Below are positions 2,175 to 10,465 of a DNA stretch of 10,471 bases, piece by piece. The position numbers and the translations under genes are program-made. The stretch is taken from IMG/VR virus record IMGVR_UViG_2675903650_000003, positions 1-10,471 of that record; one strand, given 5' to 3'. Position 1 is the first letter of the stretch. The number at the start of each line of letters is the position of its first letter. Source of the stretch: a virus (lineage: Duplodnaviria; Heunggongvirae; Uroviricota; Caudoviricetes). Under the pieces are notes generated by a model. The model made no database searches and was not told where the DNA came from. It worked only from the letters and a program-made list of their open reading frames with translations.

Positions 2175-2672
2175 ATGTCAGTAGTGACTCAAGGCACTCA
2201 GATGTACGTTCTGAATAACGGCGTGGTCAGTGAAGTTGAATGTATTACTTCATTCTCACCAGGTAGTAGCCCGGCAGATCAAATTGAAGATACCTGTCTG
2301 AGCGAAACCAATACCCGTTCTTATAAAAAAGGTCTGCGCACCCCGGGTCAGGCAACCGTTGCTCTTAACGCCGACCCGGCAAACGCCAGTCACGTAATGC
2401 TGAGCAACCTGGCTGAATCAAGCGACCAGACCAACCTGACCTTCGCTATAGGCTGGGCCGATGGTACTGCAGATCCTACTGCTGCAACAGTCGGTGACCC
2501 TGATGCAGTTGATGGTCTGTCTCTTCCAGATACCCGTACCTGGTATGTATTCCAGGGTTATGTATCAGATTTCCCGTTTGATTTTCAGGCCAATACGGTA
2601 GTTCAGACTTCCGCGACTATTCAGCGTTCCGGCCAGGGCGTCTGGGTTCCTAAAGCACAGCCAACCAGCTAA
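2175..2672 (+). CDS. Major tail (tube) protein
   Basis: 165-aa product, rich in T/S/G/A/V and of likely beta-rich composition. Good RBS. Flanked upstream by a terminator and downstream by a stable hairpin. Occupies the lambda V position directly upstream of the G/GT chaperone and tape measure genes. Confidence 0.7.
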
Positions 2673-2724: not shown

Positions 2725-3102
2725 ATGAAACTGACTCTGGATTCATTAAAACAGGCTGGTGCATTCACTGGGAGACCTGTTGAGAAGGAGATTACCTGGA
2801 AGCAGAGTGATAAGGAAATTACCGCTACCGTTTATATCCGACCTATGGGTTATCACGACGCAGTATCTACTGTTCTGTCAGCCGCGGGAAAGATTGATGG
2901 TGTTGCCGGACGTATCGCATCATCCATTTGTGATGAGAACGGGAATCCTGTTTTTACTGTTGCTGACATTACTGGTGAAGCAGACCCTGAGCGCGGTGCG
3001 CTCGACGGAAACCTTACCGTCGCTCTACTTGTCGCTATTCAGCAGGTTAACGACCTGGGAAAGACGAACTCAGCGCAGAAGACGAATTCTGGTGTGAATT
3101 AG
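2725..3102 (+). CDS. Tail assembly chaperone (lambda gpG-like), zero-frame product
   Basis: 125-aa acidic product directly upstream of the tape measure gene. RBS AAGAGAG at 2712-2718. Contains the slippery heptamer GGGAAAG near its 3' end. Confidence 0.8.
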   Translation: MKLTLDSLKQAGAFTGRPVEKEITWKQSDKEITATVYIRPMGYHDAVSTVLSAAGKIDGVAGRIASSICDENGNPVFTVADITGEADPERGALDGNLTVALLVAIQQVNDLGKTNSAQKTNSGVN

Positions 3103-3368
3103 TTCTCAACGGGATCGGCGGTCGCACCATTGCTGAAGCAAAAGAACGCGTTAGCGTTACAGAGTATCGCGACTGGGTTCTTTACCGTCAAAAGTACGGT
3201 AGCCTTAACGGAATGATGCGTACTGAGTGGGCCGCAGGCCTTATTTCTTCTGTGCTGGCTAACGTCAACCGTGGAAAAGATTCCCCCTCCTTCAAAGTAA
3301 CAGACTTCACACCACACATTAACGAGCCTTCCATTTCACTGGAGCAGGCTATGCAGGAGTGGACATAG
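2725..3368 (+). CDS. Tail assembly chaperone frameshift fusion product (lambda gpGT-like), made by -1 slip at 3057-3063
   Basis: The -1 frame (codons starting at positions divisible by 3) opens after a TAA at 3048-3050 and has no stop until TAG at 3366-3368, 2 nt before the tape measure ATG. Its translation reads ...DEFWCELVLNGIGGRTIAEAKERVSVTEYRDWVLYRQKYGSLNGMMRTEWAAGLISSVLANVNRGKDSPSFKVTDFTPHINEPSISLEQAMQEWT. No ATG-initiated + strand ORF of useful length covers 3103-3369. Confidence 0.65.
3057..3063 (+). promoter_or_regulatory. Programmed -1 ribosomal frameshift slippery heptamer G GGA AAG
   Basis: Heptamer GGGAAAG at 3057-3063 with zero-frame codons GGA (3058-3060) and AAG (3061-3063). 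This is the same heptamer as the lambda G/GT slip site. The -1 frame is open from 3051 to 3368. Confidence 0.65.
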
Positions 3369-3369
3369 C

Positions 3370-5895
3370 ATGGCTGGTAAATCCCTCGGAACGCTGACCA
3401 TTGACCTGATAGCTAAGGTTGGTGGATTTGTATCTGGTCTAAGCCAGGCTGAACGAGCATCTCAAAAATGGCGAAAACAGGTTCAGGCTGATGCAAAAGC
3501 GGCTGCGGTAGCATTTACTGGTTTTGCTACCGCGGCAAGTGCGGCAGCTATCGGTGTCGGTGTCGCCGGTTACAACCTGCTAAAAACAATGTCAAAACAG
3601 ATTACCGAAACAGACCGTTGGGCTAAGTCGCTCAATATGTCTACGCAGTCATTGCTTGCCTGGCAGTATGCAGCTGAAAAAGCTGGCGTATCCGGCGACC
3701 AGATGGCCGATATCTTCAAGGATATTGGCGATAAAATTGGCGATGCTGTACTGAATAAATCGGGTGAAGCAGTAGATGCTCTGAATGCACTCGGATTATC
3801 GGCTAAGAAATTATCCAGTGAATCACCAGATAAGCAGTTGCTGGCTATCAGCAATGCGCTCGGCAAGATTAAAACAAACGCTGAAAAGACCACAATCCTT
3901 GAAAGTCTTGGTAACGACCTTTCCAAGCTTCTCCCATTGCTTGATCAGGGAGGAGAAAAACTTCGTCAGTACATGGACGCGGCAAAACAGTTTGGCGTTG
4001 CCCCTGACGATGCTGATATCGAAAAGCTGGTAAAAGTAAACTCCCTGTTTGAGGACATGGAGACGCAGGTAAACGGTGTAAAAATTGAGATTGCCACCGG
4101 CCTGGCCAATGTTGACTTGTCAGGGTTACAGAACGCGATAACTGACATGGGGGATGTATTCAAAGATCCTCAGGTTATTCAGGGTTTGACAGACCTGGTT
4201 GGTGGTGTTGTTGATCTCGCGACCTGGCTTGTTAAAGTTGGTGCTGAAGCAGGGAAGCTAATTGACCTGTACAAAGGCGGTAAGGCTGTAGGTGACAATG
4301 CATCTGTAACTGATATAGAGCGCCGCCTCAACAATCTTAAAACTGATGTAGAAGATCAGGGATTCCTTGCCAGCTTTAACCGAATTGGTATGGACGTTGA
4401 CGGGAAAAAAGCTGAAATAGCGCAATTAGAACGCCGACTGTCCATCATGAAAGCCGGTAATAATCTTCCTCTCAGTCAGGCCACTGTAGGTGCGCCTTCT
4501 TCTTCCAGCAAAAATTATTCCTTAGGCTCAGGAGAAACTAACGGGAAAGCATCTCCAGATGCCGGGGCCAGAAAACTGGAGTCAGCATTTAAGTCTCTGG
4601 AAATGAGCTATCAGCGTCAGATAGCGCTGATTGACACAACTGGCAAAAAGAATCAGCAGGTAACCGAGCTTGAGAAGCTGCGTTTTGATTTTACATCTGG
4701 GAAATTAACAGGAATTAATGCAGCTCAGAAAGAGCGACTTGAGCAACTTGCTACTGAGATAGATCGCCTCAACTCACTTAAAAAAGCCAACGAAGAAAAT
4801 CTGAAACTTGTCGAATTTACCGCTAATTTACGTAAGCAAAATCAGAATGACCAGGCAGCTAATGATTCTGATTTTATCGGCGCAGGTATGGGAGACAAGA
4901 CTCGCCAGCGCATGAAGGAATTGCTGGATATCCATCGTAGTTTTCTCGACAGGCAGCAAGATCTACAGAAACAGTACCAAAGTGGTGATATAAGCAAATC
5001 GCTTTATGACCAGGAAACGGCAGCGTTACAGCAGGCGCTTGATGACCGTCTTGATATTCAGGAGGACTACTACAAAAAGTCTGATGCTCAGATGGGCGAC
5101 TGGCAAAGCGGGATAATGGACTCGTTGAACGATTATGCTGATAAATCAGCTGATTATTACCAGACTGCTGCAGATGCGATGACTTCTATTCTTGGTGGAG
5201 CAACCTCGGTTATTTCTGACAACCTTAATGACCTTGTGCACGGTGCAGAAGATTTAGGTGATTTCTTCAGTAATATTTTCTCTGGTCTTGGTGAAACAAT
5301 CATTAAAACCCTTTCTGATATGGCGGCGCAATGGCTGGTATATCAGGCAGTGCAATTGCTGGTAGGTAAATCCACTCAGGCAAGCGCAGCGGCATCAATG
5401 CTGGCAAACGCACAGGCATCATCTTTGCAGGCTCAAATCGCAGCATACGCATCGACAGCGGCAATTCCTATCGTTGGTCCCGCGCTTGCACCTGCAGCGA
5501 TGGCAACAGCTGCGGCAGTAACTGCACCACTTGTTGCAGCAGTTGGTACTTCTGCCCTGGCAGGTATGGCGCACGATGGTATTGATAGCGTCCCGGAAAC
5601 AGGAACATGGTTGCTCCAGAAAGGTGAGCGAGTTGTGACCTCTCAGACGTCAGCAAAGCTTGATGAAACACTGGACAGAGTAAATCAACAATCAACCAGC
5701 GGAGCAAGCTTCTCTCCCGTTATTAACATGAATGTTAACGGTGATCCGTCTGATACTCAGATCTCCATGATGAAGCAAGCCATGGCAGAGGGGGCAAAAC
5801 TTGGATATCAACAGGCAGCCAGCGACCTTGCCAGTGGGAAAGGTGACATTTCGAAAGCAATGATGCGCTGGAACACTAACAGGAGAACTGGTTAA
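3370..5895 (+). CDS. Tail tape measure protein (lambda gpH-like)
   Basis: 841-aa product. N-terminal region resembles the lambda-family tape measure domain. Long helical, coiled-coil-like middle. Ala/Gly-rich hydrophobic stretch near the C-terminus followed by WLLQKGERVV. Sits directly after G/GT and before the tail tip genes. Confidence 0.9.
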   Translation: MAGKSLGTLTIDLIAKVGGFVSGLSQAERASQKWRKQVQADAKAAAVAFTGFATAASAAAIGVGVAGYNLLKTMSKQITETDRWAKSLNMSTQSLLAWQYAAEKAGVSGDQMADIFKDIGDKIGDAVLNKSGEAVDALNALGLSAKKLSSESPDKQLLAISNALGKIKTNAEKTTILESLGNDLSKLLPLLDQGGEKLRQYMDAAKQFGVAPDDADIEKLVKVNSLFEDMETQVNGVKIEIATGLANVDLSGLQNAITDMGDVFKDPQVIQGLTDLVGGVVDLATWLVKVGAEAGKLIDLYKGGKAVGDNASVTDIERRLNNLKTDVEDQGFLASFNRIGMDVDGKKAEIAQLERRLSIMKAGNNLPLSQATVGAPSSSSKNYSLGSGETNGKASPDAGARKLESAFKSLEMSYQRQIALIDTTGKKNQQVTELEKLRFDFTSGKLTGINAAQKERLEQLATEIDRLNSLKKANEENLKLVEFTANLRKQNQNDQAANDSDFIGAGMGDKTRQRMKELLDIHRSFLDRQQDLQKQYQSGDISKSLYDQETAALQQALDDRLDIQEDYYKKSDAQMGDWQSGIMDSLNDYADKSADYYQTAADAMTSILGGATSVISDNLNDLVHGAEDLGDFFSNIFSGLGETIIKTLSDMAAQWLVYQAVQLLVGKSTQASAAASMLANAQASSLQAQIAAYASTAAIPIVGPALAPAAMATAAAVTAPLVAAVGTSALAGMAHDGIDSVPETGTWLLQKGERVVTSQTSAKLDETLDRVNQQSTSGASFSPVINMNVNGDPSDTQISMMKQAMAEGAKLGYQQAASDLASGKGDISKAMMRWNTNRRTG

Positions 5896-6368
5896 TGGCT
5901 AAAACGACCAGCATTAACTATCCGAATGATTACCTTCCTGTTCCATTGCAGGAAGGGTTCGGGTTAAAGCCAGTTAGCCCATTACTGAGAACCGAACTCA
6001 CATCCGGCAGGGCGAGGCAGAGGAGATTATATACTTCAACGCCAACTCAGGCCTCGGTTGCATGGCTGCTTACGGATCCGGAAGCTCAACTATTTGAGGT
6101 ATGGTTCAGGGACACCATTAAGGATGGCGCTGACTGGTTTAACATGCCTCTTCGATCTCCGTTAGGCGTTGTTGATGTTTATGTCTGTCGTTTCGTGGAT
6201 ATCTATGAGGGGCCGACAATTGAAGGCGGAAACTACTGGCGCTACACGGCCACGTTGGAATTGTGGGAAAGGCCTGTTCTGGCTCCTGGCTGGGCTGATT
6301 TTCCTGATTACATTATCAACAGCAGCATCATTGATATTGCGCTTAACAGGGAGTGGCCTGAGCCATGA
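5895..6368 (+). CDS. Minor tail protein, lambda gpM-like
   Basis: 157-aa product. Segment TQASVAWLLTDPEAQLFEVWFRDTIKDGADWFNMP aligns by eye with my recollection of the lambda gpM core (SVTLSVPREEATVLESFLEEHGGWKSFLWTP). TAATG overlap with the tape measure stop. First gene after the tape measure gene. Confidence 0.6.
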   Translation: MAKTTSINYPNDYLPVPLQEGFGLKPVSPLLRTELTSGRARQRRLYTSTPTQASVAWLLTDPEAQLFEVWFRDTIKDGADWFNMPLRSPLGVVDVYVCRFVDIYEGPTIEGGNYWRYTATLELWERPVLAPGWADFPDYIINSSIIDIALNREWPEP

Positions 6369-6847
6369 CGATTCTAAATAGGCTGTATGCCTCATCCGGG
6401 GAAGAGGTGATCATCGAAACCCTGCAAATAAACATCGGTACTGGTGTTTATTATCTTTGTAAAGGCTTCGATGACATCACCGCAACAACCGAAAGTGGCG
6501 TGGTGGTAACCTTTCAGGCTGCGGCTATTGATATTGCCCTTCCAGCAAGAAACAGCGATGGTACACAAGATTTGCAGTTTGCCATTGATAACATAGACGG
6601 GATTACTTCCACCGCCATACGGAATGCTCTGGATAACCTTTCAGAGGCATCGCTGACATATCGTAACTATGTCTCCACGGACCTCAGTGCTCCGGCATCT
6701 GTACCGTACACGCTGGCGATTAAAAGCGGGTCATGGACATCCATGCAGGCGCAGATTACTGCCGGATATATGAACGTTCTTGATACCGCATGGCCGCGCC
6801 ACCGATACACCCTCCCGTATTACCCCGGCCTTCGTTACATGAGTTAA
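6365..6847 (+). CDS. Minor tail protein, lambda gpL-like N-terminal domain only
   Basis: 160-aa product. VIIETLQINIGTGVYYLCKGF...VVVTFQAAAIDIALPARNSDGTQDLQFAIDN resembles my recollection of the lambda gpL N-terminal pattern (VVLWEIDLTEVGGERYFFCN...VTWQGRQYQPYPIQGSGFELNGKGTSTRPTLTVSN). It has a single Cys and no C-terminal Cys-rich region. ATGA overlap with the upstream gene. Confidence 0.55.
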   Translation: MTILNRLYASSGEEVIIETLQINIGTGVYYLCKGFDDITATTESGVVVTFQAAAIDIALPARNSDGTQDLQFAIDNIDGITSTAIRNALDNLSEASLTYRNYVSTDLSAPASVPYTLAIKSGSWTSMQAQITAGYMNVLDTAWPRHRYTLPYYPGLRYMS

Positions 6848-6856
6848 GGAGCAACA

Positions 6857-7237
6857 ATGTTCAATCCTGATAAATACCTTTCTGTCATATTGCAGAAGGG
6901 CGGTCGCACTTATCCTGAACTTGACTGCTTCGGCATAGTGAACGAGGTACGAAAAGACCTGGGGCTACCACTGTGGCCAGATTTTTCAGGTATAACAAAA
7001 GACGGCGGAGGTTTAAACCGAGAGGCCAGAAAGCTCATGCTTTCTCTGGAAAAATGCGCGCCGTGTATAGGTGCCGGTGCCGCCTGTTATTCCGGGTCAA
7101 CCGTTACTCATGTTGGTGTAGTCGTTGAAATTAACGGCCAATTGCATGTCGCAGAGTGCAACCCAGGAGTGAACGTTACCTTCCTTCCTGTCTCGCGTTT
7201 CAAACGTCGTTTTGTCAAAGTGGAGTTCTGGAAGTGA
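6857..7237 (+). CDS. Tail tip assembly protein with NlpC/P60-like papain-fold domain (lambda gpK-like, minimal)
   Basis: 126-aa product. LDCFGIV (Cys24, codon 6926-6928) matches the NlpC/P60 DCSG-type catalytic Cys motif. THVGVVV (His85, 7109-7111) and LHVAE (His97, 7145-7147) match the downstream His-containing motifs. Strong RBS AAGGAG at 6845-6850. Confidence 0.7.
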   Translation: MFNPDKYLSVILQKGGRTYPELDCFGIVNEVRKDLGLPLWPDFSGITKDGGGLNREARKLMLSLEKCAPCIGAGAACYSGSTVTHVGVVVEINGQLHVAECNPGVNVTFLPVSRFKRRFVKVEFWK

Positions 7238-9951
7238 CTATCAGAATTTATCCTTCACGGCTGCCTGGCGAGCCACTCGAAACTCATGAACATGGCGCAG
7301 TAACTATCCATCAGTGGCTTGCGAAGAACGTTCAGGGCTATAAGCCTGATATGAAGCACCCGATCACCGTTGATGTTGATGGAGAGAACATACCGCCTCA
7401 GGCATGGTTTGAATTTGCTATCAAATCAGACAGTGATGTCAGAATTTACCCTGTCCCTTATGGCGCTGTAGCTCTTGTCTGGATTGCCGTTGCTGTATCA
7501 GTTGCATCAGTCGCGTATGCTCTTTTCTTTGCTCCTGGTGTTGGTGACCTTGGCGGTTATTCATCAGGAACGGGAAACCCTCTTGATGTAAATCCTGCTA
7601 AAGCGAATAACGCAAAATTGGGCGACCCGATACGTGAGTTATTTGGACGAAGCCGTATTTATCCTGACTATGCAGTGCAGCCTGTAACAAGATTCTCAGT
7701 TGATGATCCAACGGTAATGACAGTTGAAATGTTTGTTGTTATGGGGAGAGGGCGTTTTTCATTTGGGGATGGCGATATTCGTGTAGGGTCAACTCCAATT
7801 GCTTCTCTTGGTGATGGGTTTAACTACACAGTGTATCAACCCGGGCAAAGCGTTAGTGGAGATCAACGATCAGAAAACTGGTTCAATTCCACAGAGGTTG
7901 GGGGAACCGCATCTGGTTCTGGTCTTGATATGGCGCAAACCGCGCCGGACACGGAAGATGTTGTTGCTAATTCGCTAACCGTTTCCGGACCAACAATAAC
8001 ATTTAATGGGCTGAGCACGGATGATGGAGATGAAACAACAAATGATCTTCCAGATACATGGACTGTTGGTGCAATTGTTGAGTTAATTGTTCCTGATTCC
8101 TATGTGGTAACTAATGATGGTGCTTACAGCAGAATTACCAGTGACACGCTGGAGGAAATAGCTCCTTATGTTGGGATGCCTGTAACTCTCTGGTACAACA
8201 GCATTGATTACCAACTATTCATTGCTGATTTTATACCTCACTCTGAGCCAGTCGGCGAAGATGTGATTACCGCATCAATAACCCTCGCTTACGATAGCGC
8301 CACTGGAACTCCGTTCACCGGGATTCCTGAAGGTTATGTCAGGCTATCTGTTTCCCATTCCGGAAGCGAATATAAGATTCTTGATATAGATGGTAGCTCT
8401 GTAACTCTGGAGCGGGTTATTGATGGCAGCGTTGATCCGTCATGGCCTGGATTTTCACCGCGCACAGTTCTTGATTTTGAAGCCAACGGTTTAAATGAGA
8501 ACGATAGTTGGATGGGACCTTTTCTGGCGTGCCCAGAAAATGAAGTTGTTGATATGTTCGAAGTAAACTTCTTCTTCCCAAACGGGATTTGTGGGTATAA
8601 CAAAAAAGGGAACAAACAATACCGTGAGGTAAAGTGGGAGATTCAGTACCGGCCATATGGTTCAGGCGTCGGGTGGATAAGTAAAACCGGATCGTACTAC
8701 CTCCAGAACATTAACGGACTGGGATTTACCGAAAGAATCACGCTGGATACGCCTGCGCTAGTAGAGGTGAGAGCTCGCCGCACGAACGAGCAGGGACAGA
8801 ATAACAGTCGCGATAACATGTACTGGCAGTCATTGCGAGGACGTTTGTTGTCACGGCCAGCATCGTATACTGGCGTCACCACAATTGCGGTTACTGTGGA
8901 AACTGGCGGTAAACTGGCAGCGCAGTCAGATCGCCGCGTAAACGTTGTAGCCACGCGAGTTTATGATTCTGGTGTGTCAAGGAGCATTTCTGGTGCTCTG
9001 TATCATATAGGTAATGAGTTGGGGCTAGCGATGGACCGTGAAGCTATTGACTCACTAGAAACTACTTACTGGACCCCTGGCAGTGAATTCTTTGACTATG
9101 CCACTACGGATTCTGTTTCTGCGCTGGAGATGCTTCAGAAGGTGACAAATGCAGGAAAAAGTTACTTCCTTCTTACCGATGGTCTGGCATCTGTAGCAAG
9201 GGAAGGTGTGAAAACGTGGACTGGAATAATCAGCCCACAGGAGATGACTGATCCGCTTCAGACTGCTTTCGTTGCTCCGTCAGCAGATGACTATGATGGT
9301 GTGGATGTTACATATATCAACGGCACTACATGGGCTGAAGAGACGGTGCAGTGCAGAACATCAGATAACCCAACTCCGGTAAAGATTGAGGACTATACGC
9401 TTGATGGTGTTCTTGACCAGGACCGTGCTTATCAGATAGGTATGCGACGTCTGATGAAGTACCTTCAGCAACGTTTGACTCATACCACAACAACGGAAAT
9501 GGATGCTCTCTGTTATAACGTTGGCGACAGGGTAGTATTCACGGATGATATTCCTGGTAGCAAAACAATAAGCACGTTGATTGAGGATATGAGTACAAGT
9601 GATGGCGTAACGACTATTACAGTATCAGAACCACTTGACTGGACATTCAACAACCCACGTGCATTGATACGCTATCAGGATGGTTCTGCTTCGGATTTGC
9701 TGGCAGCTACAAGGGTAAATGAATATGTTCTATCAGTAATAGAACAAGCAAAATTCAGCAATATCATGCTAAACGCCCCATCCATTGAATCGCCTCGTCT
9801 GATTTTCTGCGAGTCATCCCGTGTTGGATATAGCGCATTAATTTCAGAGATAGCACCGCAATCTGATGGAACATGTCAGGTAACGGCAAAAGAGTATCGC
9901 GACACTTTCTATCAGTACGATAACGCTACCTACCCCGGCAATGTAGCTTAA
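7234..9951 (+). CDS. Tail tip protein: lambda gpI-like N-terminal region fused in frame to a gpJ-like central tail fibre / host specificity protein
   Basis: Probable GTG start at 7234, overlapping the upstream stop (GTGA) with GGAG at 7222-7225. The track's ATG at 7156 lies inside the K-like gene. Residues 1-80 look ubiquitin-like, followed by a hydrophobic segment GAVALVWIAVAVSVASVAYALFFAPGV (about 7462-7545), then NNAKLGDPIRELFGRSRIY, which resembles lambda gpI (NVLPVLYGEMRVGS). The rest is a long beta-rich protein with J-like motifs (RRTNEQGQNNSRDNMYWQSLRGRLL). No stop codon separates the two parts. Confidence 0.7.
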   Translation: MTIRIYPSRLPGEPLETHEHGAVTIHQWLAKNVQGYKPDMKHPITVDVDGENIPPQAWFEFAIKSDSDVRIYPVPYGAVALVWIAVAVSVASVAYALFFAPGVGDLGGYSSGTGNPLDVNPAKANNAKLGDPIRELFGRSRIYPDYAVQPVTRFSVDDPTVMTVEMFVVMGRGRFSFGDGDIRVGSTPIASLGDGFNYTVYQPGQSVSGDQRSENWFNSTEVGGTASGSGLDMAQTAPDTEDVVANSLTVSGPTITFNGLSTDDGDETTNDLPDTWTVGAIVELIVPDSYVVTNDGAYSRITSDTLEEIAPYVGMPVTLWYNSIDYQLFIADFIPHSEPVGEDVITASITLAYDSATGTPFTGIPEGYVRLSVSHSGSEYKILDIDGSSVTLERVIDGSVDPSWPGFSPRTVLDFEANGLNENDSWMGPFLACPENEVVDMFEVNFFFPNGICGYNKKGNKQYREVKWEIQYRPYGSGVGWISKTGSYYLQNINGLGFTERITLDTPALVEVRARRTNEQGQNNSRDNMYWQSLRGRLLSRPASYTGVTTIAVTVETGGKLAAQSDRRVNVVATRVYDSGVSRSISGALYHIGNELGLAMDREAIDSLETTYWTPGSEFFDYATTDSVSALEMLQKVTNAGKSYFLLTDGLASVAREGVKTWTGIISPQEMTDPLQTAFVAPSADDYDGVDVTYINGTTWAEETVQCRTSDNPTPVKIEDYTLDGVLDQDRAYQIGMRRLMKYLQQRLTHTTTTEMDALCYNVGDRVVFTDDIPGSKTISTLIEDMSTSDGVTTITVSEPLDWTFNNPRALIRYQDGSASDLLAATRVNEYVLSVIEQAKFSNIMLNAPSIESPRLIFCESSRVGYSALISEIAPQSDGTCQVTAKEYRDTFYQYDNATYPGNVA

Positions 9952-10003: not shown

Positions 10004-10465
10004 ATGACGACTTATAATACTGGCAATCCGCTGGGGTCTTCTGCTGCAAAAGATTTGTACGATAACGCCCAGAACTTCGATCATCTTTCTAATGATCAAT
10101 CCAATGAGTTATGGCCTGATCGTTTTGGTAATCCACGTCTTACTTGGCATGGTATGGAGTCAAAGTACAAAGAATCATTGTCAAAAATGGGTTGGATACT
10201 AATAAAATCATTTCAGGTTGGCGCAGAGATAACCTTGACTAATCAGGCATTGCACGACGAAACCTCTGGCGAGTATTACCGTTGGGATGGTGTATTACCT
10301 AAAACCGTTCCTGCTGGCTCTACGCCAGAAACGACAGGTGGGATTGGATTAGGTGCGTGGGTTAGCGTGGGTGATGCTTCATTGCGTGGAGATCTACTCA
10401 GCTTAGATGGTGAAAAATATATCGGTATCTGTCCTGACATTGCGGTGATGCTGCCAACTTACTGA
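10004..10465 (+). CDS. Hypothetical protein resembling the N-terminal anchor region of a tail fibre or tailspike (153 aa)
   Basis: Good RBS and ATG. AT-rich relative to upstream genes. Motifs GNPLGSSAAKDLYDNAQNFDHLSN and GIGLGAWVSVGDASLRGDLLS are reminiscent of N-terminal adaptor regions of phage fibres or spikes, but this is recalled similarity, not verified. In-frame TGA at 10463-10465, only 6 nt before the window ends. Confidence 0.5.
   Translation: MTTYNTGNPLGSSAAKDLYDNAQNFDHLSNDQSNELWPDRFGNPRLTWHGMESKYKESLSKMGWILIKSFQVGAEITLTNQALHDETSGEYYRWDGVLPKTVPAGSTPETTGGIGLGAWVSVGDASLRGDLLSLDGEKYIGICPDIAVMLPTY

Follow-up and report, generated by a model that had tools for sequence, protein, structure and literature searches.

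A short DUF1833 protein as the probable small hub subunit, without iron-sulfur cluster, of a siphophage tail tip

Introduction

Whether a siphophage tail tip can have a small hub subunit without the iron-sulfur (Fe-S) domain that is found in lambda gpL is the question raised by the gene for a 160-aa protein in a viral tail operon. In lambda, the last tail ring is formed by hub domain I (HDI) of gpL and the HDII domain of gpJ (PMC10721106), while a [4Fe-4S] cluster is held, in the tail tip structure, by C173, C182, C205 and C212 of gpL (PMC10721106). The hub of RcGTA, like that of lambda, has an Fe-S cluster in its C-terminal domain (PMC10721106), and no function has been assigned to the [4Fe-4S] domain of gpL (PMC10721106).

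The initial annotation of the locus described an L-like tail tip protein of 160 residues with a single cysteine, which would, therefore, be unable to bind such a cluster, and proposed, together with a short K-like protein and a fused I::J protein, a reduced tail tip architecture. The description of the sequence is correct, C32 being the only cysteine. The points to be settled are whether the protein is related to gpL and whether it is complete or the remainder of a longer gene. Much of the answer is already known from relatives of the protein: the structure of Sf11 gp16 was solved in 2025, and homology with gpL, along with the missing C-terminal domain, was published in 2026.

Position of the gene in the tail operon

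The window, i.e. the whole stretch of 10,471 nucleotides that was analysed, carries, on its + strand, a tail operon with the layout typical of siphophages (table 1). The gene of interest (6365-6847) lies directly downstream of those for the tape measure protein (TMP) and for a distal-tail-protein-like protein, its start ATG overlapping the upstream stop codon (ATGA), and is followed by the K-like and J-like genes; this is the position of a gpL-like gene, after that of the distal tail protein (DTP) and before those of the K-like and J-like proteins. The 157-aa protein, for which no Pfam match was obtained, would be the DTP as judged by its position, which is the same in D3, K1H, Vibrio K283, Acinetobacter DMU1 and Jersey. 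Jersey, K1H and D3 keep the order TMP, DTP-like, DUF1833, K-like, J-like and tailspike, and so do Vibrio K283, Acinetobacter DMU1 and the Flyfo siphovirus. Comparison of the module with deposited phages by megablast returned nothing, and only protein-level searches gave information.

Table 1. Features of the tail operon in the window.
Feature	Position	Strand	Match or remark
Tail tube protein	2175-2672	+	
Tail assembly chaperone	2725-3102	+	
Tape measure protein, 841 aa	3370..5895	+	Tape_meas_lam_C, PHROG 2854
157-aa protein in distal tail protein (gpM/Dit) position	5895..6368	+	PHROG 384, E=6.7e-54
DUF1833/PHROG 396 protein, 160 aa, very probably baseplate hub protein 1 (BH1P) with only HDI	6365..6847	+	Counterpart of the lambda gpL N-domain
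Tube-like beta-sandwich core (HDI), residues ~15-135, one helix (80-91)	6407..6769	+	Model secondary structure, pLDDT 85-98; hhalign to gpL 8-114
Extended C-terminal tail and short final helix, residues 136-160	6770..6844	+	Would replace the gpL Fe-S domain
Short gpK-like NlpC/P60-type peptidase, 126 aa, without JAB domain	6857..7237	+	PHROG 329; CHAP E=0.008 (weak)
gpJ-like baseplate hub protein 2 (BH2P), 905 aa from GTG 7234, possible gpI-like N-terminal segment	7234..9951	+	PHROG 469, FNIII-A_GpJ, Phage-tail_3
Tailspike or tail fibre, N-terminal part, running off the window	10004..10465	+	Tail_spike_N (TSP1/gp66), E=7.4e-21

Length and cysteine content of the DUF1833 family

The 160-aa protein belongs to the DUF1833 family (PF08875), with a score of 134.7 bits (E=2.5e-39; gathering threshold, 21 bits) over positions 2-150 of the 150 of the profile, and to PHROG 396, a 'minor tail protein' (E=3e-53; positions 3-164 of 164). 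A word-indexed search gave 717 homologs, the best 120 of which are all 160-162 residues long and come mostly from prophages of Klebsiella, Raoultella, Citrobacter and other Enterobacterales. Identity to the 160-aa protein is 82% in Flyfo siphovirus Tbat2_3, 66% in Klebsiella phage ST13-OXA48phi12.2, approximately 39% in Pseudomonas D3-like phages and approximately 31% in Jersey-like and Kaguna-like phages. The protein is an ordinary member of a large and widespread family, which spans Guernseyvirinae (Jersey, K1H), Sf11-like, D3-like and Vibrio phages, besides many Enterobacterales prophages.

An exhaustive profile search across 1.84 billion cluster representatives yielded 1,327 clusters at E<=1e-3. 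Among the best 150 of these 1,327 family representatives (50% identity clusters), 130 are 150-185 residues long, the median being 165.5; none has a C-terminal extension and the domain reaches the C-terminus in every listed case. Approximately ten longer representatives (237-601 residues) are N-terminal fusions with the same C-terminal motif, and they include P0214, P0218, P0225, P0248, P0260, P0265 and P0277, in which DUF1833 is at the extreme C-terminus. These longer proteins may result from fusion to the distal tail protein encoded upstream, or from errors of gene calling; a PHROG scan of their N-terminal parts gave no match.

Such a length distribution bears on whether the gene is a truncated remnant of a longer gpL-type gene, the Fe-S domain of which would have been deleted in this phage or prophage. 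The protein has, indeed, 72 residues fewer than lambda gpL, and its end lies near the boundary between the HDI and the C-terminal domain, but it covers the Pfam and PHROG profiles end to end, it has a family-conserved motif at its extreme C-terminus, and the next gene starts 9 nt further on with its own ribosome-binding site. Above all, the uniform length of the closest homologs and of the diverse representatives, without a single C-terminal extension, refutes the truncation, to which hardly any probability can be assigned. Members of the DUF1833 family are natively short, and this form is conserved.

Cysteines are distributed in a similar way. Among the 130 representatives of 150-185 residues, 47 have none and 41 have one, so that 88 of the 130 have at most one, and only four have at least four. 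In a diverse alignment of 128 members, Val occupies the column of C32 in 74 sequences, against 29 with Cys, and Cys is conserved in no column, its highest frequency being 23%. The missing cysteine cluster is a property of the family. None of the 128 diverse members matches any Pfam family other than DUF1833.

Several database entries of the family (e.g. P0020, P0042, P0063, P0071 and P0105) are labelled 'ArsR family transcriptional regulator', almost certainly a wrong name for a tail hub protein, copied from entry to entry.

Relationship to lambda gpL

Lambda M, L, K, I and J were taken as references. Pairwise BLASTP of the 160-aa protein against gpL gave no significant match (E=0.43). Searching for relatives from lambda gpL returned only prophage proteins 98-100% identical to it, which were unusable for a profile; the gpL alignment consisted of lambda gpL and ten hand-picked diverse homologs (26-67% identity), and the four cysteines that ligate the cluster are invariant in these 11 sequences. 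When the 128-sequence DUF1833 profile was compared with this alignment by hhalign, a remote relationship was found (E=3e-5, probability 73%) that covers the N-terminal domain only, residues 3-104 of the 160-aa protein corresponding to gpL 8-114. This is the profile-profile comparison that the initial annotation had suggested, although the Pfam name given there for gpL, Phage_min_tail, is that of gpM, the gpL family being Phage_tail_L (PF05100). Lambda gpL itself scores 338 bits against PF05100, whereas no match was found at E<=1 for the 160-aa protein, nor by HMMER for any of the 128 diverse DUF1833 members. Thus, the protein is L-like in the sense of a remote homology and of a shared fold (HDI), not in that of membership of the gpL Pfam family; the sequence evidence for homology itself is modest, and the link with gpL rests mainly on fold and gene position.

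What distinguishes the 160-aa protein from lambda gpL (PDB 8IYK chain L) is the absence of the C-terminal domain (gpL 154-232) with its four conserved cysteines. It ends approximately where the HDI and the linker of gpL end, and its one cysteine is in a column mostly occupied by Val. Since only a 25-residue tail is present in place of the [4Fe-4S] domain, the protein binds no Fe-S cluster, as originally proposed.

A closely similar case has been described in Salmonella phage Jersey, the gp30 of which was identified by Hardies et al. (2026) as a gpL homolog by HHpred (E=1.8e-14; PMC13243795), C-terminally truncated and with a 'tether plus one helix' C-terminus (PMC13243795); gpL homologs without the Fe-S cluster were, according to PMC13243795, reported earlier by Tam et al. 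(2013). Jersey gp30 (Guernseyvirinae) scores as DUF1833 with 51.6 bits and is similar to the 160-aa protein by BLASTP (E=1e-15, 35% identity), within an identical six-gene order (TMP, ~160 aa, DUF1833, ~120 aa, ~850-900 aa, tailspike), and both its published link with gpL and its C-terminus agree with the model of the 160-aa protein described below. The two are not the same in all respects: with 171 residues, gp30 has a longer N-terminus, the pairwise similarity is limited to the core (29-126), and the J-like protein of Jersey is only distantly similar to that of the window. The reduced tail tip architecture proposed for the locus agrees with the 'minimalistic hub' that is the published description of Jersey (PMC13243795).

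Fold and comparison with solved hub proteins

The AF2 model of the 160-aa protein obtained with a diverse MSA (pLDDT 90.7, pTM 0.79) was used instead of an earlier one from a shallow MSA (pLDDT 72.8), in which the C-terminus was disordered. It contains the HDI beta-sandwich fold of the N-terminal part of gpL. The best structural match is Sf11 gp16 (16.2), followed by the DUF2163 hub of JBD30 (13.4), the baseplate hub 1 protein of Chi (12.1), lambda gpL (11.9, with 151 residues aligned), the T1 gpL homolog (11.3), the R4C hub (11.2), T5 pb3 (10.0) and tube/Hcp proteins (~7). The protein is, in other words, structurally equivalent to solved BH1P chains, and the comparison of an AlphaFold model with gpL, also suggested at the outset, does place gpL among the matches.

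The tube-like core could also belong to another tail component with the tube fold, for instance a further distal tail protein, a tube-initiator ring or a protein resembling the tail terminator. We give this alternative a small probability; a tube or terminator identity was considered and rejected.

The closest solved relative, Sf11 gp16 (PDB 9OCC chain F), is a 156-aa 'baseplate hub 1 protein' present in 3 copies per virion, residues 1-154 of which were modelled (PMC12724387). By hhalign, its alignment with the DUF1833 profile runs over the whole length (probability 97%, E=4.4e-11); it belongs to PHROG 396 (E=2.3e-41; positions 3-163 of 164) and was found by hmmsearch with a small, diverse profile of 5 sequences (E=4e-4); no relevant PDB chain was returned by phmmer of the 160-aa protein, nor by hmmsearch with a redundant 133-sequence profile. 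Identity between the two proteins is only approximately 16%, and gp16 scores 19.3 bits against Pfam DUF1833, just below the 21-bit threshold. The best-conserved C-terminal motif of the DUF1833 family, namely P144, Y148 and T149 followed by P154-G155-L156 (WPRxxYT...xPGLRY), whose columns are 62-88% conserved in the 128 diverse members, lines up with the C-terminus of Sf11 gp16. The surroundings differ, in that the Sf11 DTP is much larger (457 aa) than the 157-aa DTP-like protein and that no gene for a K-like peptidase lies between the two hub genes of Sf11, unlike in the window, so that the two modules are not identical.

Chi gp27, the JBD30 and R4C hubs and RcGTA g13, of the BH1P/DUF2163 type, have approximately 270 residues with a C-terminal domain, unlike the 160-aa protein, for which no HMM-level similarity to DUF2163 or Phage_BR0599 was detected. 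T5 pb3 and LSH1 gp25 are single-chain hubs, with HDI and HDII-IV in one polypeptide, whereas in the window HDI is a separate protein.

The hub ring

The explanation that we consider very probable is that the 160-aa protein is a stand-alone HDI, acting as the small hub subunit (BH1P) of a siphophage tail tip, without an Fe-S cluster and in its native short form. The HDI would be homologous, at the level of the fold, to the N-terminal domain of lambda gpL. In Sf11 (PMC12724387) and lambda (PMC10721106), each virion has three BH1P copies, which together with BH2P make up the last tail ring, below the DTP hexamer. What is shared is the fold, the gene order, the Sf11 structure and a homologous partner, the 905-aa J-like protein encoded nearby being homologous to the Sf11 BH2P gp14 in both its N-terminal (E=2e-11) and C-terminal (E=1e-14) parts; the three HDI units of the ring, therefore, most likely come from the 160-aa protein. 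By analogy with the lambda and Sf11 tips, from which its copy number, its place in the ring and the part played by its C-terminal tail are deduced, its three copies would be interleaved with the HDII domains of the gpJ-like protein, also in three copies. Instead of the C-terminal [4Fe-4S] domain of gpL, the protein would contribute a 25-residue extended tail with a short helix and the xPGLRY motif, and this tail would most likely pack on the gpJ-like subunit, where the C-domain of gpL would sit.

The K-like and J-like proteins

The protein encoded immediately downstream gives no significant pairwise BLASTP match with gpK. The two share, however, the same PHROG 329 region, which in gpK is the NlpC/P60 part (residues 68-178), and in an alignment of gpK and five phage homologs the only invariant positions are the catalytic pair C24 and H85, a Pro and a Gly; the N-terminal JAB region of lambda gpK, of approximately 60 residues, is absent. 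These features support its designation as a short K-like protein.

A further alternative is that the Fe-S function was moved to a neighbouring protein, e.g. to the K-like protein or to the N-terminus of the J-like one. The K-like protein has five cysteines, including C67-x2-C70-x6-C77 (CxxCx6C), and the C-domain of lambda gpL and the N-terminus of gpJ together correspond to a single HDII-insertion of T5 pb3 (PMC10721106). However, only the catalytic C24 is conserved, with H85: C67, C70, C77 and C101 are not conserved in the homologs of D3, K1H, Jersey, Vibrio and Acinetobacter, which speaks against a metal site having moved there and makes the C67-x2-C70-x6-C77 pattern probably incidental. Moreover, the six cysteines of the J-like protein are scattered, none of them before residue 433, the TMP has none and the DTP-like protein only one. 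A relocated cluster is thus left with a very small probability, and the stand-alone HDI without cluster stays the preferred reading.

For the J-like gene, GTG 7234 is the most likely start, rather than GTG 7156 of the listed ORF (7156-9951): the former overlaps the stop codon of the K-like gene (GTGA), and it is there that the PHROG 469 alignment begins, while the latter would overlap the K-like gene by 81 nt. The fusion of I and J that had been proposed is plausible but weakly supported. In the segment at 7234-7650 of the window, the first ~80-100 residues weakly match PHROG 32, the gpI family (E=0.0037), and a ubiquitin/ThiS-type beta-grasp (E=0.14), and are followed by a hydrophobic stretch (AVALVWIAVAVSVASVAYALFFAPG) that recalls gpI 137-152 (PMC10721106), but BLASTP of the N-terminus against gpI was not significant. 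The N-terminal region is conserved in residues 4-193 of Sf11 gp14, the first 80 residues of which were not modelled in the cryo-EM map.

Implications

Current understanding is not changed by these results, the feature itself being already known. Their practical value lies in annotation: proteins now recorded as 'DUF1833', 'hypothetical' or 'ArsR family transcriptional regulator' can be named HDI-only BH1P, in hundreds of Enterobacterales prophages. Furthermore, a large and successful group of siphophages does without the gpL [4Fe-4S] domain, whose function is unassigned (PMC10721106), and such phages are, therefore, useful comparators for what the cluster does.

A more speculative idea, which we regard as rather unlikely, is that the strongly conserved tail (WPRxxYT...xPGLRY), instead of a folded Fe-S domain, is the functional latch tying the small hub subunit to a gpJ-like/gpI-like plug, and that loss of the Fe-S domain accompanies the delegation of primary adsorption to tailspikes; these are encoded directly after the hub genes in Sf11, Jersey, K1H and the window. 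If it were true, DUF1833 phages would be a natural experiment indicating that hub assembly does not need the gpL Fe-S cluster, and the cluster would serve specifically the lambda-type ejection triggered by the central fibre.

Other features of the operon

Small variations of the shared gene order are seen in individual phages. In Flyfo siphovirus Tbat2_3 (L098 2976-4959), four cargo genes, including those of a YafO toxin and an SmpA/OmlA protein, are inserted between the TMP and the DTP-like genes, and in Pseudomonas phage D3 (L002 5576-6152) two small genes are inserted between the DUF1833 and the K-like genes. In the window, the N-terminal adaptor domain of a tailspike is encoded immediately downstream of the hub genes, an arrangement shared with Sf11, Jersey and K1H. 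Between the gene of the tail assembly chaperone (2725-3102) and that of the TMP there is a short ORF (3213-3368), a layout typical of a G/GT-type programmed frameshift pair. Finally, a 102-aa ORF at 51-359 of the window, upstream of the head-tail connector genes, has a Cys-rich stretch (GGCMWHCNEKTCDKPG).
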